A stretch of 63,810 nt of DNA, the filler included, from Collodictyon triciliatum (lineage: Eukaryota), in the NCBI GenBank assembly GCA_043381765.1. It is 6 parts of 6 records of this genome, joined end to end, with 100 filler letters (N's around TTAATTAATTAA, not from the genome) between each part and the next. Parts side by side here need not be neighbours in the genome. Positions count along the whole stretch, not along the records: positions 36,365 to 48,374 come from JBHJMP010002257.1; 5 more parts are not named here. The stretch is one strand, 5' to 3'. Under the pieces are notes generated by a model. The model worked only from the letters and a program-made list of their open reading frames with translations. It ran no database searches and was not told where the DNA came from. Made by a program: the position numbers and the translations under genes. Below, one piece after another: positions 5,608-48,474 of the stretch (position 1 is the stretch's first letter; every line of letters starts with the position of its first letter).

Positions 5608-6459
5608 GTGAGTGGGTGAGAGAGTGGGTGTGAGAGAGAGAGAGAGAAAAAAAAGAAGTCAAAAATAAACCAAATGAAAATGAATCTTTTCTTCCGTTTC
5701 AACATAATGCCTCCTTCGTTGTTCCATCTCTCATTATTTTCTTTACAAAGAACTGGGAGAAATTGGCACATTTCAATGGTTCTCCAAACAAAAAGATATA
5801 TTCTGCTGCACAAGATACATAACCAACCAGAATACTGTTGGGTCGGGTGCTGGTCTGTCGGGGTATGTCAGGAATAAAAAAAAATCATATTTTTGAACAG
5901 CGCTTTCGTTCAGTCATCACCCGATATCATAAGGGTGGCGAAGGTCCTTACTTGTCGTTGTCCATGGTGTTGTAGTGGTGATTCAGCTATGAGAATTTAC
6001 ATAATAACAATCACAATCATAATCACGTGTGGCTGTTTCAATGATGCCAGTGCATTCAACAAGAATCACCAAATCCATGAATGTTTTGCCCTGCGCGTAA
6101 AAAAAATCACTCCAGGACGGTCGCGTCTGCGAGGGCGTTCCTTGTGTTCATTGAGAAAGATAGAGTTAAAGGACAGCCCCTGTCGCCGTCTTCAAAAACA
6201 AGGTATGATGTAAGCAGGATACGTGTTGCAGTTGGGGGGTGGCGTTTCCTCTCTTTGAATCGGAGAAAAAGACACAACAGGTGCAAATATAAGCTATACT
6301 TTACGCTTTGTGAGAGGTAGGCTTTTTAATATAGATGTTTTGCAAGGGGGTTAAAAGAAAGGGAGGAAAAAGATGACAGCGAAAAGATAGGTAGGCGAGG
6401 TGAGGCGAATATAGGAGCAAATGGTGAAGAAAGTGTCATCTTTTCTTCTGATGATTGGA

Positions 6460-12022: not shown

Positions 12023-12122
12023 NNNNNNNNNNNNNNNNNNNNNNNNNNNNNNNNNNNNNNNNNNNNTTAATTAATTAANNNNNNNNNNNNNNNNNNNNNN
12101 NNNNNNNNNNNNNNNNNNNNNN
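12023..12122. other. Artificial scaffold linker (N-TTAATTAATTAA-N)
   Basis: TTAATTAATTAA at 12067-12078 between N runs; stops in all six frames; recurs about every 12.1 kb. Confidence 0.95.
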
Positions 12123-13584: not shown

Positions 13585-16554
13585 ATGCTCGCCTCCAACC
13601 CAGTCTACTACGCCCAACCCGGCTTTGCTCCTGCCGCCACTTTCCCAGCCAGCGGTTTGGCTGCTCGCACTTCGTATGTGGATTCGGCCCCGATCGCGCT
13701 TCCTGTTTCTGCAGCCCCGTCCCAGACACGCGGATTTGCCCAGCCGCAAAACCAGACTCTGCAGCCGCAGTCGTCGATCCCAGCAAGCATGACTCGCCTG
13801 ACCTCTTTTGCCCCAACCGAGGAGGAGAATCCTGCATACCTTGTCCTCAAGCCTGATCTCCGCACTGTTGTTTCGCCTTTCCGTAGAGTGCTCGTTCCTG
13901 AAACCCCGGTCTCGGAGCTCTTTCTGGAGCTGATCGAGCCCTACCACGAGCAAGTACGAGAAGACATTTATGATGAAGTCTTTTTACTCATAAACATTCG
14001 CATTTGTGTATTTGTTTGTGTATTTGTTTGTGTATTTGTTTGTGTATTATGTATGTTTTATTTATGTTTTATTTATGTTTTATTTATGTTTTATTTATGT
14101 TTTATTTATGTTTTATTTATGTTTTATTTATGTTTTATTTATGTTTTATTTATGTTTTATTTATGTTTTATTTATGTTTTATTTATGTTTTATTTATGTT
14201 TTATTTATGTTTTATTTATGTTTTATTTATGTTTTATTTATGTTTTATTTATGTTTTATTTATGTTTTATTTATGTTTTATTTATGTTTTATTTATGTTT
14301 TATTTATGTTTTATTTATGTTTTATGCATGTTTTATTTATGTTTTATGCATGTTTTATGCATGTTTTATGCATGTTTTATGCATGTTTTATGCATGTTTT
14401 ATGCATGTTTTATGCATGTTTTATGCATGTTTTATGCATGTTTTATGCATGTTTTATGCATGTTTTATGCATGTTTTATGCATGTTTTATGCATGTTTTA
14501 TGCATGTTTTATGCATGTTTTATGCATGTTTTATGCATGTTTTATGCATGTTTTATGCATGTTTTATGCATGTTTTATGCATGTTTTATGCATGTTTTAT
14601 GCATGTTTTATGTATGTTTTATGTATGTTTTATGTATGTTTTATGTATGTTTTATGTATGTTTTATGTATGTTTTATGTATCTTTTATGTATCTTTTATG
14701 TATGTTTTATGTATGTTTTATGTATGTTTTATGTATGTTTTATGTATGTTTTATGTATGTTTTATGTATCTTTCTATTCATTATTCACCATCCTGACGGA
14801 GATGAAAGCAATCTTAATGCATCTAAACCCCAACACAATTCACCATCTTCGCACAGAACCAGCAGCCCTAACCATTGCACTATATTCACACACAGCTGGC
14901 CATGGTAGACGCATCAACTGGCCACCAAGTCAAGTACGGACAACTGGCCAGCGGCATCCGCCGTGTTGCTTCCTCCCTCTTCAACCGCGGCGTCCGCCAA
15001 GGCGATGTCATCGCTATCCTTGCGCCAAACATCCCCGAATATCCTGTCGTGGCCCATGCGGCTTGGCTCTATGGCGCAGTTGCCACCACACTCGACCCGG
15101 AGTGGACGGACGACGAACTTCTGGCCCAACTGAGGGACCTCCAAGTCCGCTTTGTCTTCACCATCCCCGCCCAGGCCGACCGCATTTCCGCCCTTTGGTC
15201 CCGTCTCATCGCTGAGCCTGGAAGCTTCCCGCGCGAGTGGGCTAATATTTTTGTCTTTGGCCGTCCAGAAGCCGGCTCTGGGCATACCATGTTCTCAGAC
15301 CTGCTTAAGAGCGAGTCGCTGTTTCCCGACCACACCGTAGACCCGCATAATCAAGTTGCTGCCGTCTTCTACGTCAAGGATGCACAGGGAAGCATCCGCG
15401 GTATGGAGTTTACTCACTACAATCTGACAGCAGCCATCGTGCAGGCCTTGGCTTACGATGACATTAGCTCCCAAGACCATCTCTTTGCTACGATTCCATT
15501 CCACAGCATCGTGGGCCTCAACATTCAGCTGAATGTGGCTCTTGCCCGCGGTGTCACGGTAGTGGTGGTTTCTGGTATTTTGGGAAGCTCTCTTCGCTCT
15601 GTCTTGGACCAGTATCAGATCACCCGTCTCTATGCAAGCAAACTTGATCTGGTCCAGAATGTGCGCTCTGTGTTTGGCTCAGGGCTTTATCTCAAGTGTC
15701 TCGTCTTTGCCGGAGCCGAGGCAGCCTCGAAAGACGTCCAGCAGCTGGAGGATACGCTCGGCATTAATGTCCGCCAGCTCTTCGGTATCTCAGAGTCTAT
15801 TGTGACCCATGCGGTCTTGAAGGGCTCAGCCATCGACCATATTGCTAGCACCGGTGCTCCGGAAGGCTCAATAGGCCAACTTTTACCAAATGTTGAAGCC
15901 CTCGTTCTGGATAACCGCACCGGCTGCCCGTGCCCCGCCAACTTTATTGGAGGTTAAGCATCTATCCTTCTTTTTTTTTTCCGAAGCAAACAAATACTCA
16001 TTTTTCTTTGTATTAAAAAAATGCTTATTTTTCCAGAGAAATGTGTGATAATGGAATAGACATTTTACTAACCAGTTGTCTCTATAGAACTATTGATTCG
16101 TGCGCCGCAATGCTGCTCAGGTGTTTATCATAATTAAATTTATCCATTTCGTGTGAATAATTTGCTTTGAGTCTGCTCTGATATAATCTTGCCGAAGAAA
16201 CAATAAGCAGACGATAGAACCATTTGCATCGTTTTGGATTGAATTTCTCGATTTCAGTAATTCAGCTCTTATGTAATTCATGTTTTATCTGCCTCTAAAT
16301 GTGCAGGATATGTGAAGCCCGAAACAGCACCAAAGGTGGACCCTGATGGCTGGATTCGCACTGGATTGCTTGGTTAGATGTTAATTTATTTATTATTATT
16401 ATTTTAAGGAGAGAAATAAGACAAGGGTGGAGAAATGTATATAGACCTGTCAGTTTGCTTGTCTTAAAAAACAGCATTTTGAACTGACCCAAAATACTTT
16501 AATTCAGGATTCTACGACAAGAAGGGTTTCTTCTATGTACGCAAGGCAAACTAA
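13585..16554 (+). CDS. 4-coumarate-CoA ligase/luciferase-like AMP-binding (ANL) protein with degenerate catalytic motifs; 5 exons
   Basis: Exons 13585-13953 and 14896-15952 plus three short exons (ELLIRAPQCCS / GYVKPETAPKVDPDGWIRTGLL / GFYDKKGFFYVRKAN*). GVRQGDVIAILAPNIPEYPVV, IPFHSIVG and GSIGQLLPNVEA are 4CL-like. Confidence 0.82.
14046..14770 (+). repeat. Intronic 11-bp minisatellite in three variant blocks
   Basis: TTTATGTTTTA units, then TGCATGTTTTA units, then TGTATGTTTTA units, inside intron 13954-14895. Confidence 0.95.
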
Positions 16555-16929
16555 ACCCCAGAGACATCCGTTCCCTGGTTTTCATTCATCCGCTCATTGC
16601 TTGGAAGAAACGATTAAAAAAATAAAAAGGGGAAACCCCCAAGAACTTATAAAAACTGACGAGGAAACACTCATCCTTGGAGCTCATGATGTTTGCATCC
16701 AATTATCTTTGTTAATTGCTGGCACATCACTTTATGACAAGGCGCAGTTTTGTAGCAACACACCTTTGCGCGTCTGAAGTGGGAAAAAACTCAACCCCGT
16801 CAGTGAGAAACGTCATCATAAGTTCCACATTAAGATTTTATCCTGAAGTGTCTTTATTCATTGAATGCTCTGTGAATTCGGTCAGTCAGTTTCTGTCTTG
16901 ATCTGCCATTTGGGTCGTCAACAAAGAGT

Positions 16930-18421
16930 GCATGGAATGTCAAGTAAGCGGGACATCCCGCGCTATGATTTTCTACGACCTTGAGAAAGCATACGACTAT
17001 GTGAACCACGAAGCACTGGAAACCATCCTACACAAAAGAGGCTTCTGTACCGGATTCACCAGTCTTATCAAGAAACTGCACGACAATCCAACAGCAAGGG
17101 CACTCACAGCACACGGACCTACGGATGCAATTCAAAGACAGAGCGGTGTGTATCAAGGCTGCCCACTTGCACCACTGCTCTTCAACTTTGTCGCTGACTG
17201 TCTCGCAAACCACTTCCGAAACGAAAACAAGGCCCGCAACCAACTGCTACTTTAATACGCAGACGACACAGCATTCATCTTGCGGTATCCTGAAGGCGCC
17301 ACACTCGCCAACAAATGCATGCAAGAATACACACGAGCTGTCGGCGGGAAAATCAACTACGACAAGATAGATGGAATTCTTTTTGGGTTTCAGGATGGAC
17401 TTATGTTTCCAGAAACATTGTGTGGAAGTCACCGTCACATCCACTCAAGTATCTTGGTATCATATTCGGTCCACAATCGGATAGCAAATGGACAAGCCTG
17501 GTTGAGGACATCAAGTCGAAAATATCAGTGTGGAGCAACTTTCATCTCTCGGACGTGGGGAAAGTAACGTTGTGGAACCAAGTGATACTATCGACTCTTA
17601 TCTACAACATGATAGGCACTTTGCTGAATCTCAAGAGGCTGAAGGAGCTGGACGACATCTGCCGCAACTTCATCACTATGAATAATCAAAAAATATAAAG
17701 CTGGAAGCAAGCCCGCACATCTCAGCTACTACCGAAACACCGCGCCCTACTGCTCAATATCTCCAACAGGAACTGTGGATAAGTGTGCGCTTGTAGTCCG
17801 TGCAGCAACGACTTCTCCAGAATGCATCATGTGCCATAGTGGAGATGACTCTATCGAACACACATTTGTGAAGTGCTCCCTGGCTCAAAAAGTGACAGAG
17901 TCTACCCACAAGATGCTCTCTGAGCTTGATTATGCTCCCAGCTGTCTCAGTGCGTCTGACATTCTGTTTGGCCCACAATACCAAATGACCCACGACTCTA
18001 GAATACTCTGGACAGTCACAAGGGGACATATGCTGTGGTCCCTATGGAGTGTGCGCGCATTCTCTCGCTCTAATGATTCACCCGAACGAGAAATCAATGT
18101 ATCCATGCTTGAGAGCCTCGTACAATACAGCTTCCTGAACAGTCTGCTGAAACACGCCCGCATTCTTCGCTACTCTGACTGCAAGCGAAGAGAGATGTGG
18201 GAATGTGTCGTAAGATATCTCCCACAGCATATCCAATCACTACTACCCACACAACCAATCAACCAGTCGGGACACCCACCCGACCAACTCGCTATCACTG
18301 ATTTCTTTCCGGTGCTACCCTCTCCACAGTAGCATCTTCTCTTACTCACGTTTGCTCTTACTCACGTTTGCTCCCATCCCGCCCCTTTGTATGGCATAAC
18401 CTCGCTATACTTTGAATATAA
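16930..18421 (+). mobile_element. 5'-truncated, decayed L1/Tx1-type LINE (RT domains, C-terminal CCHC finger, 3' UTR)
   Basis: DLEKAYDYVNH, GVYQGCPLAPLLF, a TAA immediately before YADD, KYLGIIF after a frameshift, and CIMCHSGDDSIEHTFVKC. The 3' end matches 24249-24525. Confidence 0.92.
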
Positions 18422-24148: not shown

Positions 24149-24248
24149 NNNNNNNNNNNNNNNNNNNNNNNNNNNNNNNNNNNNNNNNNNNNTTAATTAA
24201 TTAANNNNNNNNNNNNNNNNNNNNNNNNNNNNNNNNNNNNNNNNNNNN
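24149..24248. other. Artificial scaffold linker
   Basis: TTAATTAATTAA at 24193-24204 between N runs. Confidence 0.95.
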
Positions 24249-37501: not shown

Positions 37502-39905
37502 TACTTCGTCAACACGCAACAACCGGCCCGAGCCGCAGCAGCAACGCCGGCACCAAAGTCACCGCCGCCGCCCATGCATTCGAGTCGCTTTCGCAACCGG
37601 GCCAAAGCAGCTGCCGCAAAGGCCAGGAAGGAGATTCTGTTGCCGCCGATGATCACTGCGCGCGAACTGGCCAGTCAGATGTCTGTCCGCGTTGTGGATG
37701 TGCTCAAGGTCATGATCCGCATGGGCGAGAAGCCAAAGACTGCCAATGAGATGATCCCGGTGGATCTTGCAGAGCTCATTCTCATGGAGAAGCAGTATCC
37801 TTGGAAGCGGATTACGCAGCGGCAGGTCGATATTGAGCCGCAGACCCACTTTGATGACGAATCGGCCCATCCTGACCATGAGTTTGTCACTCGCCCGCCA
37901 ATCGCCACCATCATGGGCCACGTCGACCATGGCAAAACAACGCTGCTGGATGCTTTGCGGGAAACTAGTGTTGCTGCAAAGGAGGCGGGTGGGATTACCC
38001 AGCACGTAGGCGCTTTTGCAGGTTTGATGACCTCATTCTTTCCTATCTTGATTTTAATTTGTATTTTATTAGAGATGTTTTTTTTTTACATTTTTTTTTT
38101 TACATTTTGTTTGTAATTTTCAAATGCTTGATTAATAAATGTTGGGTTTTTAATTTTCTTATGATTCGTGTTGCTACGCTACGTTTACTTTATTTTAAAA
38201 TATTTTCCTGTGGATTTCTAGTTGAATTAGACTCTGGCTCGAAGATTACTTTTCTGGATACTCCGGGGCATGCTGCGTTTTCGTCCATGAGAGAGCGTGG
38301 GGCGCGATTGACTGATATGATTGTGCTAGTTGTTTCAGCAGAAGACAGTGTGAAACCTCAAACAATAGAGGTTATCAAGCATGCAGAGGTATGAGTTCTT
38401 CGTCGATATCAATAATCGAAAGAGCAATTATTTAATTTATATGGCATTTCTCAGATATTTTGAAAAGTGTGAATTTTTTTTTAAAAAAAAAGAAATTCAT
38501 CAAAATACTATAATTTACTGGATTTATATTTATCTTTCATCCTTGAGATGATTCTATACTAATAATATATTGAAATTTTTACCTTAAATTTACTGAATTA
38601 TAGAAAACTGAGGCGCCTTTAATTGTTGCAATCAATAAATGTGATAAGCCAGCGGCAAGACCTCAAAAAGTCAAAGAAGATCTTGTTGAATATGGAGTCC
38701 TGACAGAAGACTATGGTGGAGATGTGCAAAGTGTGCAAATATCTGCCCTGAAGAAAACAAACCTGGATAAACTTGAGGAGGCTATTATGCTGCAATCACA
38801 GTTTCTTCATATGAGAGCAAACATATCATGCCCACCCGAGGCGGTTGTTGTGGAATCCAGACTTTCTCATGGACAAGGACCTGTTTGTGTGGCTATTGTA
38901 AAACGTGGGACTCTGAAGAACGGACTGATGGTTGTTGCTGGAGAGCATTACGGAAAAATCCGGTCTTTAAAGACTCATGATGGCAAGATTTTAAAAGAGG
39001 TTTTCCCAGGCCATCCCGTCGAGGTAATGGGAATCAAAGGATTGCCAAGCCCAGGAGACTACATACTGACCGTTGAATCTGAAGAGCGTGCAAAGGAGAT
39101 TTGTGAATTCCGCGTTCAAAAGTCTAACGAACAGCGGGAGCAGATGCGTGCCAAAGAAATTCTTCGCGAGAGAGATACCGAAGAAGAGACTGCTATTCCG
39201 ACGCTTCCTTTGGTTATCAAAGCCGATGTAGCAGGAAGTATCGAGGCCATCACATCGACTCTGCATTACATTCCTGATAACCAGGTGCGCATCAAAGTCT
39301 TGGATGCGTCGGTGGGAAATGTGTCTGAATCTGATGTTATGGTCGCCGCCGCCGCAAAAGCAACAATATTGGCATTCAATTCCCGAGTAAACGCCGAAGT
39401 CACAGCCTGTGCTAAGCAGAATTATGTGACCATTCATCCATACCGCATTATATATCAGCTTCTCGATGGTATCCGAGACCTTATGTCTTCGCTGCTGCCA
39501 CCAGTAATCATTGAAACAGTTGTTGGGGAGGCCGAGGTTTTGCAAGTGTTTGAAATCAACGTCAAGAAGAAAGACCAAGACAGTGTTAAAGTTGCTGGCT
39601 GTCGTGTGTCCAATGGCCGTCTGCGCAGAGCTGAGAAGTTCCGTGTAATGCGAGAGGGAGAAGTTATTTTCACGGGGGATGCAGAGTCTCTTCGTCATTT
39701 AAAAGACAATGTGTCAGAAGTGAAGGTTGGCTCTGAGTGTGGTGTGTTATTAAATGGCTTTAGTGATATCCGAGGAGGAGATAAGATTCAGTGCATTACA
39801 CAACACAAGGAGAAGCAAGCAATCCCAGAAATCACGCCTGACTTCCTTGAAAGAAAAAAGCGTGAGGAAGAATACCGAAAGAATGCCGCAGAATCAAAAT
39901 TGTAA
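37502..39905 (+). CDS. MTIF2: Mitochondrial translation initiation factor IF-2 (5' end in gap); exons 37502-38021, 38222-38388, 38604-39905
   Basis: [73 protein letters not shown] and [19 protein letters not shown]; the spliceosomal introns show it is nuclear-encoded. Confidence 0.96.
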
Positions 39906-40586
39906 TGAACATCACGTGACAAAAATGAAGCAATAATAAAAGAAAGGTCAAAATGAAAAAAAAATAATAATTCCGGCCTTCTCACTTTCTGCATGGATTC
40001 ATAATTTGCTAATTAAGAAATAAATAAAATAAAATCTAAAGAAGAGGAAAAGTGTGAATCCAACTTTGTTTAATGGAACTAATACTATTAAATAAATAAT
40101 TCGTGCTGAGACCCTTCCAAATAGATGTGTTTTGCAATAGATTGCTGTTGGATTATCTTTTCATCTTTATTTTCCTTCCTTTTTGTTTTCCAGGTTGGGG
40201 GTGTATGCGTATTAGTGTTTGTCTATTGGCTATTTCTTTATTTATTCAAGCACAACTCAGCAAATAAACAGGAAATTAAAAAAAAGGAGCATATATGAGA
40301 TGCTTTTTTCGCACATAGAAGCTGAAATGGGGTGGAAAATAATCATGTAATATATAGGGGCATAATACAAAGTAAATCGCTCTTAAAGGACACAGCTTTT
40401 ATCGCAACTTTTGGCGGCGAAGCGAAGTGGGCTCTCTCAGACGCATGGCAGATACGGCCAAGTTTTGTTTTCTTTCATTTTATTCAGCTTGATGTTCGGG
40501 AGGTCCTTCGGGCTGGCATTTACGAGAGAGCCGCTGCGACTTGGGAGCCTGATGGCTGAAAGTAAGCGGCTATTATATAGTTATAA

Positions 40587-41038
40587 TTATTTGCCAGAAA
40601 GGCTCTTGAGCTCTATATCCCTTGCTGCAAACTTAGGGTTAGGATAGGGTTGCAACTCTGGGATACTTGACCTTGTTATTGGCTGAGACAATCCTGGGGT
40701 ATTGGATTGGGGTGAAGCGGAGCGAAACGTTCCCACAAAAATCGGAAGCGAAACATTGAGATTTAGGGACCGTGGCGGCATGATGGCCGACACCACCAAC
40801 CAGTATTTAAATCTAATGTATGGGTGATTCTCCATAGTTGGGGCTACATCCAAAGGTATGGTTAGTTTGGGATTGAAAAGTATATTTTGTGCACCAGGGT
40901 GGACGGATTTGGTTTCGATGAAAAGTTGACGGTCATGAAAGTTTGTGTCTGTGTGGCCTCTGGCTGTGTAAGACTCTTCTCGTCTGAGAAGAACTTCAAT
41001 CCCCCTAATCTCACTACTTGAACCATCAGAGATGGTAA
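40587..41038 (-). CDS. Last exon of an alpha-arrestin-like gene (arrestin C-terminal domain); upstream exons not found on this scaffold
   Basis: After a CAG acceptor: TISDGSSSEIRGIEVLLRREESYTARGH...LTIPLDVAPTMENHPYIRFKYWLVVSAIMPPRSLNLNVSLPIFVGTFRS, an Arrestin_C-like pattern. Confidence 0.7.
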
Positions 41039-41051
41039 CTGTTGGACATAA

Positions 41052-41093
41052 TGATACTTTTATATTCTATATACCTAGAATATAAAAGTATCA
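41052..41093. terminator. Perfect 18-bp-stem hairpin; candidate viral 3'-end signal or junction structure
   Basis: TGATACTTTTATATTCTA-tatacc-TAGAATATAAAAGTATCA, about 105 bp downstream of the last minus-strand viral ORF. Confidence 0.55.
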
Positions 41094-41198
41094 GTTTATT
41101 CCATCCTTTAATTAATTTCGCCTTTATATACCCCTAAATCCATCTATATATGGTAATTCCACATTAGGCAAGGAATGTTTGAGAAGGTTCCAGAACTT

Positions 41199-41507
41199 TT
41201 ATTCAAATGTGAAGGCAGTTCCATATTTGCGGATGATGACTGTGAAGGCTAGCAGCTGAAGTTCTTCGTCGTCTCCGTCTTCTTCAGAATAGTTTTTTTG
41301 CTGTCCTAGCAATTCATCGTGTAGTTCTTCTTCATCCATCTCGGGGTATGCTTTGCTCAGTCGCTGCATAGTCACACATCGAAGTTTGTAATTTGTATAC
41401 TGAATAGTTCCCTCATAATCCTTGGTCCAAATTTTTAGTTTACGGGTATTCGAGTCAAATTCAATTTGGCAATCGTGGCTTTCGACGTAGTAAGCAGTGT
41501 ACAACAT
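41199..41507 (-). CDS. Viral hypothetical protein, 102 aa, acidic C-terminal half
   Basis: MLYTAYYVESHDCQIEFDSNTRKLKIW...YGTAFTFE*; AAAATTGA lies on the same strand at 41574-41581. Confidence 0.6.
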   Translation of the reverse strand: MLYTAYYVESHDCQIEFDSNTRKLKIWTKDYEGTIQYTNYKLRCVTMQRLSKAYPEMDEEELHDELLGQQKNYSEEDGDDEELQLLAFTVIIRKYGTAFTFE

Positions 41508-41579
41508 TCTACAAAATTTCAAATTAGTATATGCGCTAGGTTTTGATATGTGGTATGAAATATATACAACATTTCAATT

Positions 41580-41735
41580 TTATACCGACGAATGTAATAA
41601 ATCTTTTTCACTTTTAAATTCAACTGTCCCACCACAGCAGCTCGACCTTTTCAAATGATCGACTGTGTATTTCCACAGTCTCTCTAAAACTAACACACAA
41701 GTCATAAGTAATGAAATTATTGTAATCGGTTCCAT
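41580..41735 (-). CDS. Viral 51-aa membrane microprotein (not in the ORF track)
   Basis: MEPITIISLLMTCVLVLERLWKYTVDHLKRSSCCGGTVEFKSEKDLLHSSV*. It starts 16 nt after the capsid stop and is preceded by the same TGTATAAT motif as the capsid gene. Confidence 0.65.
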   Translation of the reverse strand: MEPITIISLLMTCVLVLERLWKYTVDHLKRSSCCGGTVEFKSEKDLLHSSV

Positions 41736-41751
41736 TAATTATACAAATATT

Positions 41752-43386
41752 TTATTCTACTCTGAAGGTCTGCTGGTTGGATTGAATTTCAAGGACGGCG
41801 TCATACAAAGATGCAACAATAATATTATATGGCCCATCAGTGGCACCAATGGGAGCATTGAAGTTTAATCTTAGCGACATTAGCCCTGACCCGCTACTCT
41901 GGATATCTGTACCGACTATTTCCCCTTCGACCGCATCGAGTACTTTGCGGAGATTGAAGCCGATTAGGAATTCACTGGCAGGTCCTTGGAAGCTGCCTTG
42001 ATAAAATCGTCTAATGGCATCAGCTGCTGCTATTTGAGTTGTACTTTGTTGGGTACCCACACTATGTGTTATTGTAGAGTGGTTAGCATTAACTACAATG
42101 GAACAAGCAGTACCCGCTGTACCTTGAGCTGCACCTGCATTTACTTTTAATAAAGCTTGATTCACTGCCACGGAATTATCAGAAAATGCTATTGGTGGAG
42201 CAGTTACGGCAGGTTGATTAGCACCTGCAATTGCCTGAATGCTATACCCAGTCTCTAAATTCTGTAATTGATTCAAATAATTGCCTACAAAGTTTCGGCC
42301 ATCAAACCCAAACGGCCCGGTGTATTCACTTCACACGTGAGTGAGACCAAGCGCCTTTTGCAACTCCAAGAATGCTTGGGGCGCATTTCCTTCACAGTCC
42401 ATTGGCTGTAAGGGGTAGTAGAATGAGCCGAGTTGAAGTTGGGCATCAACAAGTGTTGGGGGTTTGTGCTTTCTATCTTTGCCAGGAACCATGAAAGTAG
42501 ACTGCTCTCGCTGCTTGAAAAATGCAATAAACACACTATTCAAACTTTTAACTGTATCATTAATATTAAAAACGTGCAATGTTTGTTGACCAGCAGGTAA
42601 GCTGTACATTGATGTCCTCCATGTCTTGTACGGAATTTGCAGGGGAATGCCTCGTTGAATACTTGATTGCAATTGCTGATGATACTCTGGAGCCATACGA
42701 ACAACATCGTAAGTCAAATAACATGAACTAATTTCGTATGTTGCTGTGGTTGGAGGAGCACCAGTAGTATTTAAATTTATTTGACAAGCGTCATTAGCAG
42801 GTGCCAATTCTATTTCAATCTGGAATGCTGAAACTGAATCAATCATAGATGTACTAATGAGACCTGAATAATTGCTAATGCCAGACAATCTAAAAGGAAC
42901 ACAATATTTTCGTGAAGTGGTGAATCCAGCATCGGCTGCTGCACTTGCAACTACAGATTGCATTCTTGTATAATAAGGACCTATACCCAAGACAGCTTGG
43001 CCAACACAATCATTATAATCTTTCGATAAGTAATTCATAAACATTGATTCCAAATAGGCATACCGTTGAATATCCTCTAAAAGGAAACTAGATCCTTTCC
43101 TAATGCGGAGATTTCCAATTACAGATTCAATGCTATTACAAAAAGTTGCGTGATAAGTTCCAGCAGGAGCAGAAACTTTAATTCGTGCTGAAAAATGAAG
43201 CATCAATGTATCCATATCAATCTCCATTCCAGTTTCGGAAGGTATGTTAAACAGTATTCGGTCAATTGACGTCGGTCCAAAGATTGAACCATTAAACGGA
43301 CTGATTCTAGTTGTGTGTCTCGCTAGAACTTTGTCATTGTAGTTTTTCACTCGCATGTACTTTGCTTCAGTAGGAAAATCGGCCAT
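41752..43386 (-). CDS. Major capsid protein (double jelly-roll, PLV type), 544 codons with one in-frame TGA at 42331-42333
   Basis: ORFs 42331-43386 and 41752-42276 share one frame (…GLTHV*SEYTGPFG…). Motifs ISPFNGSIFGP...ILFNIP...IDMDTLMLHF, SIESVIGNLRIRKG...LEDIQRY, QLGSFYYPLQP...AFLELQKALG, FLIGFNL and LYDAVLEI follow the PLV MCP pattern as I recall it. Confidence 0.8.
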
Positions 43387-43438
43387 ACTATTATACAGAA
43401 AATAATTTCAACATACATTGCGTTTAAAATGAATCCGG

Positions 43439-43656
43439 CCCCTCCAACAACTTTCCGCCTCCAAATGTTGAGGTTGATGGTTAGTGGCTAAGAATTTTTC
43501 CTGCCCAAATCCTTTATATATTTCTTCTTTTTTTATTTTAAAATTTTAAAATTTTAAAAAAATAAAATAGAAAAATATAGGCGATTGGAGCCCGGGGTTT
43601 TTGCCTCCAGCTCCACCAACCGATCATCAAGCGGAGGCGGAAAGTTGTTGGAGGGG
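43439..43656. repeat. ~220-bp imperfect palindrome with perfect 24-bp GC-rich outer arms and an AT-rich core
   Basis: CCCCTCCAACAACTTTCCGCCTCC (43439-43462) is the exact reverse complement of 43633-43656. The core includes TTTTAAAATTTTAAAATTTTAAAA. Confidence 0.92.
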
Positions 43657-43666
43657 GCGGCGGCGA

Positions 43667-44026
43667 TTATGTCATAGGCCGAAAACCTCGACCTGTTGAT
43701 GCCAAGACATAAGCCTGACCGAGGTCTTGAATTCCTGAACCTAGTGCCCGGGCATTTGTTAATTTAAATTCAGTATTTCCCAAGGTTGAAAGACCACGGC
43801 CCAAATAATTGGCTGCGGTAATTGTGCTGACCAAAGGATTGGCTATTGTTTGAAAAGCTGGTTTGATTCCTGTGCTTTGCAAGCCCAACTCGACTAAGCC
43901 ACCGGATGCTCGATTCAAATCTGAATATGCGTCGTCCAATCGTTTCAGTTTTTGTAATGCGCCTTCTGTATGTCTTGTTAGGAATCGACCGACACCTCTT
44001 GCACCTTTTCGTACGTCTACAATCAT
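43667..44026 (-). CDS. Viral 119-aa basic, Gly/Ala-rich hypothetical protein
   Basis: ATG at 44026: MIVDVRKGARGVGRFLTRHTEGALQKLKRL...GRGFRPMT*. Divergent from the large ORF with a 32-bp spacer. Confidence 0.65.
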   Translation of the reverse strand: MIVDVRKGARGVGRFLTRHTEGALQKLKRLDDAYSDLNRASGGLVELGLQSTGIKPAFQTIANPLVSTITAANYLGRGLSTLGNTEFKLTNARALGSGIQDLGQAYVLASTGRGFRPMT

Positions 44027-44058
44027 ATTATGGCCAAGAAAATTATATAAACTAAAGT

Positions 44059-47000
44059 ATGAGCGGAAAACAACCAACTCGTGAAGAAATTATTAAAATA
44101 TATGAAAAAGAGATGGCAAAAAAAGGATTTGATTTAACAACCTGGAGGGAAATTGGTAGGACACAATTTGGAATAGATACTTCCAGAATGCTTGCTCAAC
44201 GTCAAATTATAGAAGCTATTGCAGTAATTAAAGCAGATAAAGATATAAAAGAACAACAAGAAAAAGCAAAAAAACCTCAAACTACAACACCACGACCTCC
44301 AGCACAATCACCACGACCTACAGCACAATCACCTCTACCACAAGCAGAACCAGAACCAGAAACTGTTGAAATTGTAACAGAAAAAACTTTAAAAAGGTTA
44401 TATGCAAATTTTCCAAGGAAAGAGTTTGAAGATAAATTATATAAAGATTTTAAGCGTAGACTCCCCAAAGACTATAAAGAAGCAGATGCTGTAGATTTTT
44501 ATTTGAAATTACAAAAAGAAAATTATGTTAAAGTGATGGCAGAAAAATTTGCAAAAGCTGCCAAGACAAAAAACGATGTATTAAGATTTTATAAATTTTT
44601 TATTGATACAGCGGCAGGACTTGATGAATATGCCACATATGAACATCCATTAATGCAAGACATAGTAAACCATTCTAATACAACAGGAGTTAATATACAA
44701 AAGTTAGCTGAATTTGCACTTAATGATTATTATGACCAAATGTACAAAGTTACAGAATTTTTACAATTGTTGAAATCTGACAGTGTGGTTGATCAAAGAA
44801 AAGCCAAAAAAATGCAAGATGACGGAGAAGAACCAGGTGAGCCGTATGACTTGGAGGATTATATTGACCAATTGTTTAAAAAATATGTAAATGGATTGGT
44901 TGAAATAAAAGATGTAAAAAATTATCAAACATATTTAGAATGGTTCAAACAGCAACACCAACCGTATATTGTAAATGAATTTTTTTATGGGCAAGACGAA
45001 GAAAATCCAGATTGGAGAAATGAACGAAGCGAAATAAATTATTTACGGCAAGCTTTATTTGAAACTTTTAATCAAAAGAGTGTTGCAGAATATGAAGATT
45101 TGGTTTATAAATATGTTTACAACCCTGATGACACTGTTGACGACGTACTACAAAAATATGCAGATAGATTACTCGTATTGCAACCCGGTGCAGCTGTTAA
45201 TGCTAAATTTACTAAATGGCCAGCAAGTAAACTAGCAGAGACTATAGAAACACGTGAGGAAAAAAGTAGAAACCCATTTAAAGGTAAAGACTTGAATTTT
45301 GTTATCGGTGGACATGATTCTAAAACATTTTATTCTTATGTACCATATACAATAGAAGATACAGATGAACCACTAGGTGTAGCAGATCCAACACCGCAAA
45401 GACAATTAATAATGAGTCCTAAATCTTCAAAGTTTTTCTTTAGAATGCAAAAAGATAAACCTACAGAAGATACACCTACACAAGAAGAGACTGCAACTCC
45501 CATCCCTGAAACCAGAGAACAAAAAAGAGAAAGGATACAAAAAGAATTGCAAGAAAGACAACGGCGTGAATCTACCGCTATTACATCAAATGTTAGAGGA
45601 GCCGAAAATGTTGTAGAAGCAACTAAAAGTATAAGAGATCTTGAAAGAGTATTTGAACGAGAAGAACCTGTAGTTATTGATGATGATGAACCTGTTTTTA
45701 CACCAGATAAATCTATGATTTCTGCTCAATCAGGTGAAGAATCATTTGGCTCTTTTGAATCTGCTTCATCAGCTACATTTCAAAAGCCAACGACGCCCTA
45801 TGCTTTTTCACCAAGTTTGCTAGCTCCAGTGTCTATGTCTGGAGGAGCAGGCCAGCCAGGTAGAAGAACTTCAGTTCCAGCTATAACAACAAAAGCAACT
45901 GATGTATCACAAGCAAAATTTGGTACACCAACAGAAGGCACATTTGATACAAGTCAGCTTATACCAGGTCCCAGAAGCCATCAGGGCGGTACAATAACAC
46001 CAGAAGACCTAAAACCTATTACATTTGCAGATACTCCCGTTCCACAACCTCAGACACAATTAAGCGGTAGATTTGTAACAGACGCACCCGCACCACCTCC
46101 ACCAGACCTAACAAATGAATTGAAAGCGGCTAATGAAAATATTTTACAGTTACAAAGTGAAAAAGAACAATTACTAGAAACATACAAAATATCGGCAGAA
46201 AAAAATAAAAGTCTAAAAAGAGATAATGATAATTTGTCAAAATTATATGAAGGAACTAAGAGAACAAAAGACGGTTTGGAAAAAGAGGTGGAAAAACTAA
46301 AAAGTGTTGAAGTTACTTTAAAAACTAAAGAATCAGAATTGGCAGCACTTCAAGATACATACAGCTCATTAGTAACAGCACAAAAAGCTTCTAAAACTAG
46401 AAATGATAATTTAACTTCTGAAATTGCAGGCTATAAAGAACGAGAAGCAGGATTGATTAGAGCTAATGAAACATTAAAACAAGAATATGCTAGTCTAGAA
46501 GTTAATTACAAACTTTTAGAAAAAAAAAATACAACAGGTGCAGAAAATGTAGAAGCAATTAAAAAAGCTACTGAAACACTCAATGCACAATTAGCAACGG
46601 CAAATTCAAGATTAACTGAATTCGAAAGAAATTCAAGTGTAGTAGTTGCTGAAAGAAATAGACTCAGAGAAGATTTAAAAATTGCACAAGAACAGCTTAC
46701 GGATATAGATAGAGCAAAACAGCAAACAGATAGCCGCAATGTAGATTTAAATGCCCAAAATATTAGATTACAACAAAAAGTTGATGAATTACAATTAACA
46801 ATTCAACAAAATGAGCAAGATATTCAAGCATATAATCAACAAATAACGGAATTAACTGAAACTAACGCAACTGATACAGAACGATATAATGAATTAATTG
46901 AAAATTATATGGTGTTGCTTAAAAAATCTAATGTTGCTATGGCAGATGAACAAGTAGGCACTGAAATTGTAATGCGAGAAATGGGGGTAGGTAGTAGTAT

Positions 47001-48162
47001 TAGGTATGCAACTACTGGAGTAGGCACACCAAAAATTGTAATGCGACAAATGGGTGTAGGTAGTGGTAATGTGTATGCAACTACTAGGAGTCAAAATATA
47101 CAAACTGATAATATACAAACTGAAAATAAAAATATCAGTGATTATATGCAAAGTAACCCAAGTCAAGCAGAAAGTAGTAAATCCAAAAAATATGCTAGAG
47201 TGAGTATAACTAGAGGTGGTGACCCAATGACACCAGGAACAAAGTCTAGGACTCTTGGTGTACTAAAACGGTCCGAAAGATCAAGTGCGCCAGGAGTTTA
47301 TTTAGACCCCGAATTTGATGACCTACCCCGTGACGAAACGGGAGCAGTGCAAGTAACTCAAAATGTTCTAGCCGAATATCCTTCAAGAATGAACTTTGTA
47401 AATTTCGGTGCCATAAATGCTGAGACACAGGCAATAGTTGCACGGCCCGCATTTAACGAAAATCTTAAAACAAACATTGATAGATTTGTAAGTGACTTAA
47501 ATTTTGCTATTGTTAACATTGCTTGTATCAAAAAGAAAAAGAAAGATGCTCAAATTATTCCACCAAATCTAGACCCAGAAAATCCTATTGAAGTTGAGGA
47601 TGACCCTGATGAAATTATTCAACCACAAAGACCTATTTATATAAATGGTGAAGAAGTTTACAGTTACGATAATATTTTAAAACTGCTACAACAATACGAC
47701 ATAAGGTGGGAAGAAATTACAAAAGAACCTGCCCTTGCAAAAAAAATATGTCAGTATGCGTTTGGCACTGCAGATCTCCAATATACAAATTACGATAAAT
47801 TAAATACGAATCTGAAATATGCTATGAAAATTGGAGCTTTCCCATTCAAATACGAGCGCAAGGAAGGCGAAAAGCGCGAAGCCAAACTTCAAAATGTGGC
47901 ATATCTCCCCAATCAAGGAATGGGCCGCGTCGTCAATTCTGACCTCGGCACAATTATTATTCCAGGCCAATCCAAGTATTCCATCAGACGCGAGGGCCTC
48001 AATTACGTCGTCCACGGCGGCGGCCAGAAACGCGCATTCGGGTCTGCCAAGGACGCCCAGTATTTCGTATCCTCCGGTGCATTCGGCCGCAAATCTTACG
48101 GGCCAATTACCGAGCGAATCTTTGGCACACCTATGAAGAATCTTTCACAGGCTATTTATTAA
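44059..48162 (+). CDS. Viral 1367-aa protein with a long central coiled coil; function unknown
   Basis: Uninterrupted 4.1-kb ORF with A/T-biased codons, a heptad-rich region at ~46110-46920 and Pro/Thr-rich linkers. Confidence 0.88.
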   Translation: MSGKQPTREEIIKIYEKEMAKKGFDLTTWREIGRTQFGIDTSRMLAQRQIIEAIAVIKADKDIKEQQEKAKKPQTTTPRPPAQSPRPTAQSPLPQAEPEPETVEIVTEKTLKRLYANFPRKEFEDKLYKDFKRRLPKDYKEADAVDFYLKLQKENYVKVMAEKFAKAAKTKNDVLRFYKFFIDTAAGLDEYATYEHPLMQDIVNHSNTTGVNIQKLAEFALNDYYDQMYKVTEFLQLLKSDSVVDQRKAKKMQDDGEEPGEPYDLEDYIDQLFKKYVNGLVEIKDVKNYQTYLEWFKQQHQPYIVNEFFYGQDEENPDWRNERSEINYLRQALFETFNQKSVAEYEDLVYKYVYNPDDTVDDVLQKYADRLLVLQPGAAVNAKFTKWPASKLAETIETREEKSRNPFKGKDLNFVIGGHDSKTFYSYVPYTIEDTDEPLGVADPTPQRQLIMSPKSSKFFFRMQKDKPTEDTPTQEETATPIPETREQKRERIQKELQERQRRESTAITSNVRGAENVVEATKSIRDLERVFEREEPVVIDDDEPVFTPDKSMISAQSGEESFGSFESASSATFQKPTTPYAFSPSLLAPVSMSGGAGQPGRRTSVPAITTKATDVSQAKFGTPTEGTFDTSQLIPGPRSHQGGTITPEDLKPITFADTPVPQPQTQLSGRFVTDAPAPPPPDLTNELKAANENILQLQSEKEQLLETYKISAEKNKSLKRDNDNLSKLYEGTKRTKDGLEKEVEKLKSVEVTLKTKESELAALQDTYSSLVTAQKASKTRNDNLTSEIAGYKEREAGLIRANETLKQEYASLEVNYKLLEKKNTTGAENVEAIKKATETLNAQLATANSRLTEFERNSSVVVAERNRLREDLKIAQEQLTDIDRAKQQTDSRNVDLNAQNIRLQQKVDELQLTIQQNEQDIQAYNQQITELTETNATDTERYNELIENYMVLLKKSNVAMADEQVGTEIVMREMGVGSSIRYATTGVGTPKIVMRQMGVGSGNVYATTRSQNIQTDNIQTENKNISDYMQSNPSQAESSKSKKYARVSITRGGDPMTPGTKSRTLGVLKRSERSSAPGVYLDPEFDDLPRDETGAVQVTQNVLAEYPSRMNFVNFGAINAETQAIVARPAFNENLKTNIDRFVSDLNFAIVNIACIKKKKKDAQIIPPNLDPENPIEVEDDPDEIIQPQRPIYINGEEVYSYDNILKLLQQYDIRWEEITKEPALAKKICQYAFGTADLQYTNYDKLNTNLKYAMKIGAFPFKYERKEGEKREAKLQNVAYLPNQGMGRVVNSDLGTIIIPGQSKYSIRREGLNYVVHGGGQKRAFGSAKDAQYFVSSGAFGRKSYGPITERIFGTPMKNLSQAIY

Positions 48163-48192
48163 ACAATTCTTATTATTCATAAAAATTGTTTA
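48160..48192. terminator. Bidirectional hairpin spanning the stop codons of two convergent viral genes
   Basis: TAAACAATTcTTAT-tattc-ATAAaAATTGTTTA: 14-bp stem with one mismatch (G-U on the minus transcript) and a 5-nt loop. Confidence 0.65.
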
Positions 48193-48372
48193 CGCGGATG
48201 TTAAAGCAGGAGTACAGTTAAATCGAGTTGAATCAACCATCCAGCGTCCTATAGTGGTACGGAAATTAGTAGCTGTAAAATTGGTTCCTTCTGTTACAGT
48301 GTAAGTTGTTCCTCCAAGTGCGATACCTGTGCCACTAGACCCGAGCACAAAGGCGTTATTTGTTGGACTAAC
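48190..48372 (-). CDS. C-terminal fragment of a further viral ORF (Thr/Gly-rich, beta-strand-like)
   Basis: ...VSPTNNAFVLGSSGTGIALGGTTYTVTEGTNFTATNFRTTIGRWMVDSTRFNCTPALTSA*; the frame is open to the scaffold edge. Confidence 0.55.
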   Translation of the reverse strand, partial: VSPTNNAFVLGSSGTGIALGGTTYTVTEGTNFTATNFRTTIGRWMVDSTRFNCTPALTSA

Positions 48373-48374
48373 TG

Positions 48375-48474
48375 NNNNNNNNNNNNNNNNNNNNNNNNNN
48401 NNNNNNNNNNNNNNNNNNTTAATTAATTAANNNNNNNNNNNNNNNNNNNNNNNNNNNNNNNNNNNNNNNNNNNN
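48375..48474. other. Artificial scaffold linker
   Basis: TTAATTAATTAA at 48419-48430 between N runs. Confidence 0.95.

Follow-up and report, generated by a model that had tools for sequence, protein, structure and literature searches.

The window, i.e., the whole 63.8 kb of DNA that we analyzed, consists of six pieces of ~12 kb joined by linkers of the form N44-TTAATTAATTAA-N44, and its fourth piece contains, from ~41050 to the end of the contig at 48374, part of an integrated polinton-like virus (PLV). Intron-bearing host genes (IF-2 and an arrestin gene) are located on the same gap-free stretch as this element, which is probably the left part of the virus, integrated beside or within the host arrestin-domain gene. 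The element is cut off at the end of piece 4, 180 bp from the hairpin with which this study is mainly concerned. By PLV we mean an element of ~15-25 kb with a double-jelly-roll capsid gene, often accompanied by Tlr6F, that occurs both free and integrated in protist genomes; at this locus we identified a double-jelly-roll capsid gene, homologous contigs of up to 17.2 kb, and host genes on the same contig. The gene order of the element (ORF119, the capsid gene, and ORF51, with a large gene of 1367 aa diverging from them) is also that of its relatives, which are known as metagenomic contigs. Tlr6F/DUF5754 adjoins the capsid gene in a distant relative, L010 (E = 4.5e-21), and is described in the available part of one source as conserved across PLVs and NCLDVs (PMC12220804). 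Among the matches listed for sequencing runs that share 6-41% of sampled words (11 studies, 20 rows), each is either a metagenome or carries no label, and no RNA run is listed. The features of the element and its host flank are collected in Table 1.

Table 1. Features of the integrated element and of the adjoining host DNA (window coordinates).
Feature	Coordinates	Strand	Remarks
Host exon, arrestin C-terminal domain	40590..41038	-	Pfam PF02752, E = 6.5e-8; flanking host DNA, outside the element
Junction palindrome, perfect, 18 bp with 6-nt loop	41052..41093	.	Virus/host junction; fold -21.5 kcal/mol, z -7.7
Non-coding block conserved with L004 (6128-6253)	41096..41185	-	Includes GGGGTATATAAAGG
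ORF102, last ORF before the junction	41199..41507	-	Without detectable relatives
ORF51, conserved small hydrophobic protein	41580..41735	-	Just 3' of the capsid gene; tblastx and alignment against L001, L003, L004, and L006
Double-jelly-roll major capsid protein gene, 543 codons	41752..43386	-	One in-frame TGA at 42331-42333
Long palindrome, imperfect, 225 nt	43435..43660	.	Between ORF119 and the capsid gene; GC-rich 37-nt arms, AT-rich palindromic core 43533-43562
ORF119, conserved small protein	43667..44026	-	Directly upstream of the capsid gene; stop codon 43667-43669
1367-aa ORF	44059..48162	+	Coiled-coil, low-complexity middle; conserved C-terminal domain of ~210 aa; ends in the hairpin
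Stop-to-stop hairpin	48160..48192	.	14-position stem, 5-nt loop; common to two convergent genes
Convergent ORF, C-terminal 60 codons	48190..48374	-	Cut where the contig piece ends; the hairpin's last three bases form its stop codon

The initial annotation had suggested that this element may act as a provirophage, and in this respect it has to be amended, since the element groups with polinton-like viruses and not with recognized virophages. In the 7.3 kb of element present we see no hallmark gene of virophages, and of the virophage module (MCP, penton, FtsK-HerA ATPase, and cysteine protease) these 7.3 kb show only the double-jelly-roll capsid gene; penton, ATPase, and replication genes are not seen in them, the rest of the element lying beyond the contig end. 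A Pfam scan of the window returned host genes only, and no giant-virus sequence linked to the element was present in the window. The capsid ORF has 38 full-length homologs, the best of them 85% identical, with no match to a Pfam family and no relative of the protein found in IMG/VR. Homologs with 85% and 67-70% identity to the capsid protein are located on contigs of 17.2, 17.2, and 16.9 kb. Its AF2 model (pLDDT 75.6) gave Foldseek matches with E values of 1e-18 to 1e-8 to double-jelly-roll capsid proteins of NCLDV, PLV-like, adintovirus, and virophage origin; the best structural matches were unnamed, NCLDV, and adintovirus proteins, with virophage capsids at ranks 26, 28, and 44 in BFVD (the last being mavirus) and Sputnik 18th in the PDB. 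All 25 aligned relatives read through at the position of the in-frame TGA. A reassignment of TGA to a sense codon was ruled out, because six of six element ORFs end in TAA, long ORFs of the host stay open when read with the standard code, and only one position is affected. A possible host-protective role as a provirophage, like that of integrated mavirus, had also been suggested for this locus; in the present copy the capsid gene is interrupted by this in-frame stop.

Homologs of ORF119 are present in L002 (83% identity), L004, L006, L005, and L008; neither ORF119 nor ORF102 belongs to a Pfam family, and ORF102 has no similarity to the gene that occupies the corresponding position in L004. The adjoining non-coding block common with L004 contains TATATAAA at 41130-41123 on the minus strand. 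On the other side of the element, the 1367-aa ORF is homologous to a 1015-aa ORF in L004 (E = 2e-65) and to a 467-aa ORF in L006, and only 16 cluster representatives among 1.84 billion are homologs of its protein, which has no Pfam match. The C-terminal domain found no usable match in the ESM Atlas, and its AF2 model, of middling quality (pLDDT 68.8, pTM 0.46), has no recognized fold (best VIA-align Z 4.9 over 55 residues). A reading of this domain as a penton, i.e., a single jelly roll, was dropped because the model is alpha/beta with long helices. The fragment of the convergent ORF likewise has no Pfam match.

The hairpin between these two convergent genes has the sequence TAAACAATTCTTAT / loop TATTC / ATAAAAATTGTTTA, with one C-A mismatch in the stem, at which the minus-sense RNA can form a G-U pair. 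The hairpin opens with the TAA stop codon of the 1367-aa ORF and closes with TTA (48190-48192), the stop codon of the minus-strand ORF, which is open to the contig end. Because the stem runs from one TAA to the convergent TTA, a single DNA palindrome would put a hairpin at the 3' ends of both transcripts. The plus-sense RNA folds at -6.3 kcal/mol (z -4.6) and the minus-sense RNA at -11.6 kcal/mol (z -6.3), with 0 of 200 shuffles as good in either case. Orthologous hairpins, each again extending from the TAA of the gene to the convergent TTA, are located at 88-122 in L004 and 2208-2242 in L006, and both fold better than their own shuffles (z -5.1 and -3.5, respectively); the plus-sense energies in this set of three are weak (-5 to -9 kcal/mol).

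The stem of L006 has a sequence unlike that of the window, with both sides of five pairs changed and pairing kept, and one stem pair is C-G, U-G, and U-A across the three sequences. We read these covarying pairs by eye from three separate folds, because MAFFT, when given the three orthologous hairpins, places L006 out of register. The check for compensatory changes in other copies that the initial annotation proposed gives five such pairs, in a comparison that comprises three orthologous sequences (window, L004, and L006) and a nearly pure A/T alphabet, in which pairing is cheap. Conservation of structure and not of sequence, as in the hairpin rule of giant viruses, was therefore observed at an orthologous gene end. 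Judged from the sequence, the stop-to-stop hairpin is a candidate bidirectional transcript 3'-end signal, and it is the strong case among the three palindromes.

We scanned the element (41040-48374) for hairpins in which 12 or more bp are matched, no more than one is mismatched, and the loop is 3-12, these stem and loop thresholds being set for the present analysis, and compared the result with 300 dinucleotide shuffles. The 7.3-kb element contains 3 such hairpins against a mean of 0.09 expected, and 0 of 300 shuffles reach 3. Only 4 hairpins of at least 12 bp are present in the whole window, i.e., 3 in the 7,335 bp of the element and 1 in the 53,783 bp elsewhere (Fisher p = 0.006). All three palindromes of the initial annotation are where it had placed them, and they are non-random. 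The higher hairpin frequency for which it proposed a test holds against composition-matched sequence at 12 bp or more but not against the rest of the window at a threshold of at least 10 bp, where 3 hairpins in the element compare with 8 (p = 0.14, not significant).

Taking the window together with the related contigs L001-L011, we counted 19 hairpins of at least 10 bp in 5,488 bp of intergenic DNA and 9 in 33,146 bp of coding DNA (odds ratio 12.8, p = 1.5e-10). With the intergenic DNA padded by 15 nt and the threshold at 12 bp or more, 12 were observed and 0.60 expected, and 0 of 200 shuffles reached 12. Of the convergent spacers 4 of 5 contain a hairpin and of the tandem spacers 7 of 15, whereas none of the 6 divergent spacers (832 bp) does, i.e., hairpins are located in intergenic DNA with gene 3' ends and never between divergent starts. 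For example, a hairpin follows ORF51 in L001 (1826), L003 (1666), L004 (5597), and L006 (5767), although the same site in the window has none. No short hairpin of at least 10 bp is present at the ends of the capsid gene, ORF51, or ORF119 in the window; gene by gene, the two convergent genes share one hairpin, ORF102 has one at 106 nt, and ORF119 has the large insertion only. Across 44 Tlr6F-bearing loci of IMG/VR, hairpins of at least 11 bp were found in 17 of 117 convergent, 17 of 121 divergent, and 41 of 368 tandem spacers, a weak association with gene 3' ends, and their spread among Tlr6F-bearing contigs is uneven: L013 has a hairpin at 8 of 10 gene ends, and 17 of the 44 loci have none.

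Our search for promoter motifs found the Mimiviridae early promoter AAAATTGA in 0 of 31 gene upstream regions (-30 to -1); the motif has 3 occurrences in 77.4 kb on both strands, one of which overlaps the ORF51 stop codon. A different motif, ATTTTCT(A/G/T), precedes the ATG of the core genes by 10-22 nt in the window and in L002, L004, L005, and L006, and within the divergent spacer of L006, which measures 33 nt, it makes up a palindromic TAGAAATATTTCTA; we regard it as a putative compact virus-type promoter. The conserved, canonical TATA-like box GGGGTATATAAAGG in the non-coding block might indicate that the element is transcribed, at least in part, by host RNA polymerase II.

Taken together, we regard it as somewhat probable that the element is an integrated PLV whose transcription units end in palindromes of the hairpin-rule type and are read in a giant-virus factory. 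In giant viruses that follow this rule, the viral RNase III nicks the hairpin and the viral poly(A) polymerase extends the end. According to this proposal, the PLV family would end its transcription units in AT-rich palindromes of which the structure, and not the sequence, is conserved, and the hairpin in the nascent RNA would serve as both a termination and a 3'-processing signal. The signal would be of the same kind as the hairpin rule of cytoplasmic giant viruses, which virophages and transpovirons copy. If so, the genes of the element would be read in a giant-virus factory and not by the host nuclear machinery, and the virus would behave like a virophage. RNA ending at the hairpins, the supply of enzymes by a giant virus, and the identity of a helper are what we infer from the DNA, and by analogy with the known cases giant-virus dependence of the element is plausible. 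The narrower attribution to a Mimiviridae-type factory is not supported, given the count of 0 of 31 for AAAATTGA and the reported presence of such hairpins in Pithovirus, Marseilleviridae, and most Pimascovirales as well.

The positional and conservation evidence is the same for genuine transcript-end signals that work without a giant virus, through host nuclear or virus-encoded factors, for instance by acting as terminators in both directions and so preventing read-through from one tightly packed convergent gene into the next, with the element an autonomous PLV or a transposon-like resident. The conserved TATA-like box in the non-coding DNA common with L004 is consistent with such signals, as is the failure to find the giant-virus-specific motif upstream of any of the 31 genes, and how most PLVs replicate is described as unknown in the abstract of one preprint (bioRxiv 10.64898/2026.07.28.741278). 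We nevertheless consider signals of this type rather unlikely, since palindromic 3'-end signals are described, in the portions of the literature available to us, only for cytoplasmic giant viruses and their dependants, and the hairpin signal is absent from amoeba transcripts according to the accessible text of PMC6723459. In addition, promoter-like motifs 10-22 nt from the ATG and spacers of down to 32 nt are unlike typical nuclear genes.

The two longer palindromes differ from the stop-to-stop hairpin in ways that bear on whether these structures act as DNA, i.e., in replication, resolution, packaging, recombination, or integration. In such a case the junction palindrome in particular would belong to the viral genome as a structure of its terminus or junction, and the long palindrome would be a foldback (MITE-like) mobile insertion. 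The junction palindrome is located exactly between the last L004-homologous base and the host arrestin-C exon, which starts ~13 nt beyond it, and the end of the L004 contig coincides exactly with the beginning of this palindrome. In length and stability it far exceeds the other hairpins, and it begins 106 nt downstream of the ORF102 stop, beyond the conserved non-coding block, and therefore follows ORF102 only loosely; it may be either a last terminator or a terminal/junction structure, and its role is ambiguous.

The arms of the long palindrome (43435-43471 and 43624-43660) are 86% complementary over 37 nt, stand 152 nt apart, and are GC-rich, unlike the AT-rich element; 6 nt separate the end of the right arm from the stop codon of ORF119, and the entire structure folds at -103 kcal/mol. 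The spacer between ORF119 and the capsid gene is just 19-48 nt in relatives, with 5 of 5 lacking the long palindrome, which by this comparison appears to be a lineage-specific (or copy-specific) foldback insertion. Rfam returned sub-threshold matches to miRNA precursors for the two long palindromes (44 bits against a gathering threshold of 230, and 32 against 80), and these reflect generic long hairpins. A 22-mer of the arm has no second copy in the window besides its own partner and no match in IMG/VR, so that mobility of the insertion is not shown, and a target-site duplication is not evident by eye. Thus, of the structures that the initial annotation had read as gene-end hairpins, the conserved stop-to-stop hairpin stands as such, while the long palindrome is an insertion and the perfect palindrome marks the host junction. 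A DNA-level role for the palindromes as a whole is improbable in our judgment, because it would not account for the repeated occurrence of short palindromes at many gene ends, where they begin at stop codons, or for their avoidance of divergent spacers.

That the palindromes are functionless by-products of AT-rich, low-complexity intergenic DNA and two facing TAA stops, as their almost wholly A/T stems, the simple TTTTAAAA-type repeat in the core of the long palindrome, and the lack of distinction between the element and the rest of the window at the 10-bp threshold might suggest, is highly improbable and largely refuted by the dinucleotide-preserving shuffles, which never reach the observed counts (0 of 300 and 0 of 200), with single hairpins at z -4.6 to -7.7, structure kept at the orthologous site despite a different sequence, and no hairpin in any of the 6 divergent spacers although these are equally AT-rich.

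A broader claim, which we advance tentatively and consider possible but doubtful, is that a PLV family known from metagenomes and the present copy ends its units with hairpin-rule palindromes, including the stop-to-stop form, and that these palindromes mark a giant-virus-read element and the class of its helper. If true, gene-end hairpins would be a sequence-only marker separating virophage-like from autonomous PLVs, one that points to the helper class (hairpin-rule giant viruses) independently of promoter motifs, and the uneven spread of hairpins among Tlr6F-bearing contigs would reflect different helpers. The matching of helpers has to date relied on promoter motifs, and a gene-end signal would make dependence predictable from sequence. 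The host, if it can be grown and infected, would be a system for asking whether a giant virus switches on integrated PLVs. The importance of the finding is limited by the present copy, which is partial and damaged, and by the textbook status that hairpin signals of virophages and transpovirons already have.

Several known systems resemble the one described here. Like bacterial rho-independent terminators, the stop-to-stop hairpin is a stem-loop with which a transcription unit ends and which can serve both strands between convergent genes; unlike them, it has an AT-rich stem with no T-run after it and stop codons inside the stem, in a eukaryotic/viral context. The PLVs PgVV/Gezel-14T of Phaeocystis and those of Tetraselmis share with the element their PLV type, Tlr6F (here in distant relatives), and a possible dependence on giant viruses. 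PgVV and its helper share the AAAATTGA early promoter, according to the available text, whereas this motif is absent upstream of the element genes, and the accessible parts of the corresponding literature do not mention gene-end hairpins for PgVV/Gezel-14T or the Tetraselmis PLVs. [quoted passage not shown] Helper matching for EMALEs came from promoter motifs and experiments and not from hairpins, and, unlike mavirus, the element has an interrupted capsid gene and a capsid that is not closest to virophage capsids.

Palindromes concentrated between ORFs and tied to stop codons are likewise found among the Pimascovirales: in viruses of the Marseilleviridae/Pithovirus type, 67% of palindromes are located in the 10% of the genome between ORFs and are tied to stop codons (PMC5413956, from the available portion), and a preprint, in its accessible part, proposes intergenic hairpins as ancestral in this order. 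Those giant viruses encode their own RNase III, unlike the visible 7.3 kb here, where none is present. The initial annotation was right that Mimivirus and Sputnik transcripts end at hairpins: the available parts of PMC4402537 and PMC6723459 report that Mimivirus transcripts do so and that 16 genes of Sputnik have a detected hairpin signal at their ends, and virophage and transpoviron genes are described as flanked by a late promoter and a terminator hairpin in the accessible text of PMC7031253. The element differs from Sputnik in being an integrated PLV and not a lavidavirus, in the absence of AAAATTGA upstream, and in having several gene ends without a hairpin, and, compared with the Mimivirus hairpin rule, its hairpins are candidate signals read from DNA. 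Like Sputnik and the transpovirons, it is a small element of DNA; its capsid module is virophage-like, and, as in the rule common to Mimivirus, Megavirus, Sputnik, and the transpovirons, its AT-rich palindromes are located at gene 3' ends, are conserved in structure, and are common to convergent genes.

The 63,810 bases comprise six pieces, each roughly 12 kb long, with linkers of the form N44-TTAATTAATTAA-N44 between them; adjoining pieces need not be genome neighbours, and the six are not mutual copies, with only low-complexity repeats in common. Among the 140 stop-to-stop ORFs in the window that reach 90 aa, all scanned, Pfam identified eukaryotic genes, with matches to LRR-kinase, DnaJ, RING/NHL, myosin, Ras, BTB, reverse transcriptase and IF-2, the last in a gene split by introns. 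We also observed a long tandem array at 13900-14800 (piece 2, local 1880-2659; unit of about 55 bp, copies 84-93% alike) within long ORFs. Reverse transcriptase fragments (RVT_1, zf-RVT) in several frames at 16902-18329 (+) point to a decayed non-LTR retrotransposon, and a GC-rich island at 33000-35400 (0.60 versus about 0.40 around it), where long ORFs overlap on both strands and 33682-34854 (minus) matches a GNAT acetyltransferase, may have been acquired horizontally or be contamination.

We read the element at approximately 41050-48374 as the left-hand portion of a polinton-like virus (PLV) that has integrated and is cut off by the assembly, based on the identity of its capsid, a relative encoding Tlr6F, a common gene order, and the presence of host DNA (an arrestin exon and the IF-2 gene) on the same gap-free stretch. 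The capsid protein, with X at the single in-frame TGA, identified 38 full-length homologs of 428-597 aa, the best 85% identical, on contigs of up to 17.2 kb; none of the 38 has a Pfam family, and IMG/VR contained no relative of this protein. The TGA position is a sense codon in 25 of 25 aligned relatives, and the TGA itself could reflect either a genuine nonsense mutation or an error in sequencing. The closest capsid relative was modelled with AlphaFold (pLDDT 75.6), and Foldseek matched the model to double-jelly-roll major capsid proteins (E 1e-18 to 1e-8), i.e., those of NCLDVs, unnamed BFVD entries, an adintovirus, adomaviruses and virophages, with SGIV, PBCV-1, Faustovirus and Sputnik capsids as the PDB matches. 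A metagenome collection yielded 11 related contigs (L001-L011), and in the most distant of these, L010, Tlr6F/DUF5754 lies directly after the capsid gene (E 4.5e-21); Tlr6F is described as conserved across PLVs and NCLDVs (PMC12220804). A large gene divergent from ORF119-capsid is present in the window, L004 and L006 alike. ORF51, which falls below the usual ORF length cut-offs, is hydrophobic in its N-terminal half and contains CCGG as a motif. The C-terminal domain of the 1367-aa protein (about 210 aa; 47446-48159, +) is always found at the extreme C-terminus of its proteins, which range from 94 to 1448 aa and have N-terminal parts unrelated to each other; only 16 cluster representatives of this domain were found among 1.84 billion, and a fold search gave it no match (best Z 4.9). 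The present copy has an interrupted capsid gene, an insertion and a partial assembly.

Coordinates of features in the window and in related metagenomic contigs
Feature	Position	Strand	Description
Joints/linkers	12023-12122, 24149-24248, 36265-36364, 48375-48474, 60542-60641		features not to be read across
Arrestin C domain exon	40590 to ~41038	minus	host DNA left of the element
Junction palindrome	41052-41093		perfect 18-bp stem, 6-nt loop; -21.5 kcal/mol, z -7.7
Conserved non-coding block	41096-41185; L004 6128-6253	minus (window)	capsid proteins of these elements only 56% identical
ORF51	41580-41735	minus	small hydrophobic, 51 codons; after capsid gene in window, L001, L003, L004, L006
ORF51 counterparts	L001 ~1640-1795, L003 ~1515-1669, L004 ~5390-5541, L006 ~5622-5745
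Capsid frame	41755-43386	minus	543-residue protein, one in-frame TGA
In-frame TGA	42331-42333	minus	only break in otherwise full-length capsid gene
Promoter-like ATTTTCT[A/G/T]	43396-43403, 44036-44043	minus
Imperfect palindrome	arms 43435-43471, 43624-43660		225 nt, 3' of ORF119; -103 kcal/mol
Stop-to-stop hairpin	48160-48192		14-position stem, one C-A mismatch, 5-nt loop
Orthologous hairpins	L004 88-122; L006 2208-2242		each 15-position stem, 5-nt loop

The initial annotation described a stem with a 5-nt loop across the stop codons of two convergent genes, and this hairpin is present, with one mismatched position, in piece 4 (36365-48374), 180 bp from the right end of that piece. It opens with the TAA of the plus-strand ORF encoding the 1367-aa protein and closes with the stop codon of a minus-strand ORF running off the contig. 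As RNA, the plus sense has a folding energy of -6.3 kcal/mol (z -4.6) and the minus sense, in which the mismatch becomes G-U, one of -11.6 kcal/mol (z -6.3); 0 of 200 shuffles were as good in either case. Homologs of the 1367-aa gene in L004 (E 2e-65, with the last 170 residues highly similar) and L006 also have a terminal hairpin, running from their own TAA to the TTA of the convergent gene (z -5.1 and z -3.5 when folded separately), and this conservation in relatives strengthens the observation. With the stop codon as register, the stems of the window and L004 have the outer nine pairs in common; the fifth pair is C-G in the window, U-G in L004 and U-A in L006, and five further pairs in the L006 stem are changed on both sides with pairing kept. 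The paired double changes in L006 are suggestive of compensatory change, as the initial annotation had proposed to look for in other copies, but fall short of statistical proof, this being a comparison of three sequences with an A/U-rich alphabet and separate folds set side by side (MAFFT mis-registered L006).

Using a definition of at least 12 matched bp, no more than one mismatch and a loop of 3-12 nt, the element (41040-48374) contains three hairpins versus 0.09 expected, a count reached by 0 of 300 dinucleotide shuffles. The whole window contains four of this class, i.e., 3 in 7,335 bp of the element versus 1 in 53,783 bp elsewhere (p 0.006). With the threshold lowered to 10 bp, the element and the rest of the window do not differ significantly (3 versus 8, p 0.14). 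All three structures reported initially are confirmed.

In the family set (the window from 41094 plus L001-L011, with a minimum ORF length of 70 aa), we assigned hairpins of 10 bp or more by their centre: the 5,488 bp of intergenic DNA contain 19, and the 33,146 bp of coding DNA contain 9 (odds ratio 12.8, p 1.5e-10). With intergenic segments padded by 15 nt, we count 12 of at least 12 bp versus 0.60 expected, and 0 of 200 shuffles reach 12. Hairpins are found in 4 of the 5 convergent spacers, in 7 of the 15 tandem ones and in none of the 6 divergent ones. Four distantly related contigs (L007, L009, L010 and L011) have one common hairpin directly 3' of the capsid stop; these are not independent, and only that of L011 is in the 12-bp class. 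The presence of a hairpin 3' of ORF51 in L001, L003, L004 and L006 suggests that ORF119, capsid and ORF51 form one unit closed by a hairpin; in the window itself, neither ORF51 nor the capsid gene is followed by a hairpin that reaches 10 bp.

Searching with the Tlr6F protein of L010 gave a wider set of 44 IMG/VR loci, comprising PLV-sized contigs and giant-virus bins. A gene end was scored as positive if a hairpin of 11 bp or more lay no further than 80 nt away; the share of positive gene ends ranges from zero, in 17 of the 44 loci, to 8 of 10 (L013), and is at least 25% in 9 of 44. Pooled spacers with hairpins (17 of 117 convergent, 17 of 121 divergent, 41 of 368 tandem) show a weak tie to 3' ends. 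In L013 (9.2 kb of a 15.2-kb contig seen), nearly every spacer is a single 27-39-nt AT-rich palindrome, a layout far denser than that of the window element. A second locus, L012, has a TAA...TTA palindrome between convergent genes. Gene-end hairpins are thus a lineage-specific trait, carried by other small viral contigs too, which argues against a new kind.

The most likely reading, in which we place moderate confidence, is that the hairpins are transcript-end signals of an integrated PLV, of the type following the hairpin rule, i.e., transcripts ending at palindromic hairpins; if so, reading by giant-virus machinery is implied. A helper-independent terminator role would also place hairpins at gene ends, and we regard it as a less likely alternative.

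The two larger palindromes fit a gene-end role less well. The long palindrome noted initially after the ORF119 stop is present but lies outside the gene-end plan of the family, since the ORF119-capsid spacer is only 19-48 nt in 5 of 5 relatives (L002, L004, L005, L006 and L008), and holds none of 10 bp or longer, although a 9-bp hairpin is present in L005. The same spacer in the window is longer by about 250 bases, which include GC-rich arms, and keeps the promoter-like sequence beside the capsid ATG; from this arrangement we read the palindrome as a probable foldback insertion; no second copy was found in the window or in IMG/VR, and mobility is thus unsupported. The stem placed after the last minus-strand ORF is indeed perfect over 18 bp, but a non-coding block conserved with L004 separates it from the ORF102 stop. 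This block includes GGGGTATATAAAGG, a canonical TATA-like sequence situated some 30 nt ahead of the palindrome. The point at which this palindrome begins in the window is exactly where the L004 contig ends, and the host arrestin exon starts about 13 nt beyond the palindrome. This structure could terminate the last unit, form a viral genome terminal structure, or be an assembly-breaking feature. We give DNA-level roles for these two palindromes a lower likelihood still than a helper-independent terminator role.

As to transcript-end signals of the hairpin-rule type, the proposed link to a Mimiviridae-type factory is too narrow. Pithovirus is said to obey the hairpin rule, Marseilleviridae are reported to have the same hairpin bias (PMC5413956), and a 2026 preprint reports intergenic hairpins in most Pimascovirales, so the signal marks several cytoplasmic giant-virus lineages and their dependants, not Mimiviridae alone; in addition, across the element and its relatives, none of 31 genes has AAAATTGA upstream. 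Within the element, only one exact AAAATTGA lies near a gene start: it overlaps the ORF51 stop at 41574-41581 (minus), with the ORF102 ATG 67 nt downstream, and a single such copy is compatible with chance. The initial interpretation is partly supported, with a host-protective provirophage as a hypothesis for this element. The accessible literature on the hairpin rule, virophages and PLVs yielded no description of gene-end hairpins in any polinton-like virus, which leaves their absence unproven. In virophages and transpovirons, genes are described as flanked by a terminator hairpin and a late promoter (PMC7031253). The motif ATTTTCT[A/G/T] lies 10-22 nt before the ATG of core genes in the window, L002, L004, L005 and L006. 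Within the 33-nt divergent spacer of L006, the palindromic TAGAAATATTTCTA gives this motif on both strands. The TTTCTA forms of the element motif recall the TCTA late motif reported for CroV and mavirus (PMC8547959).
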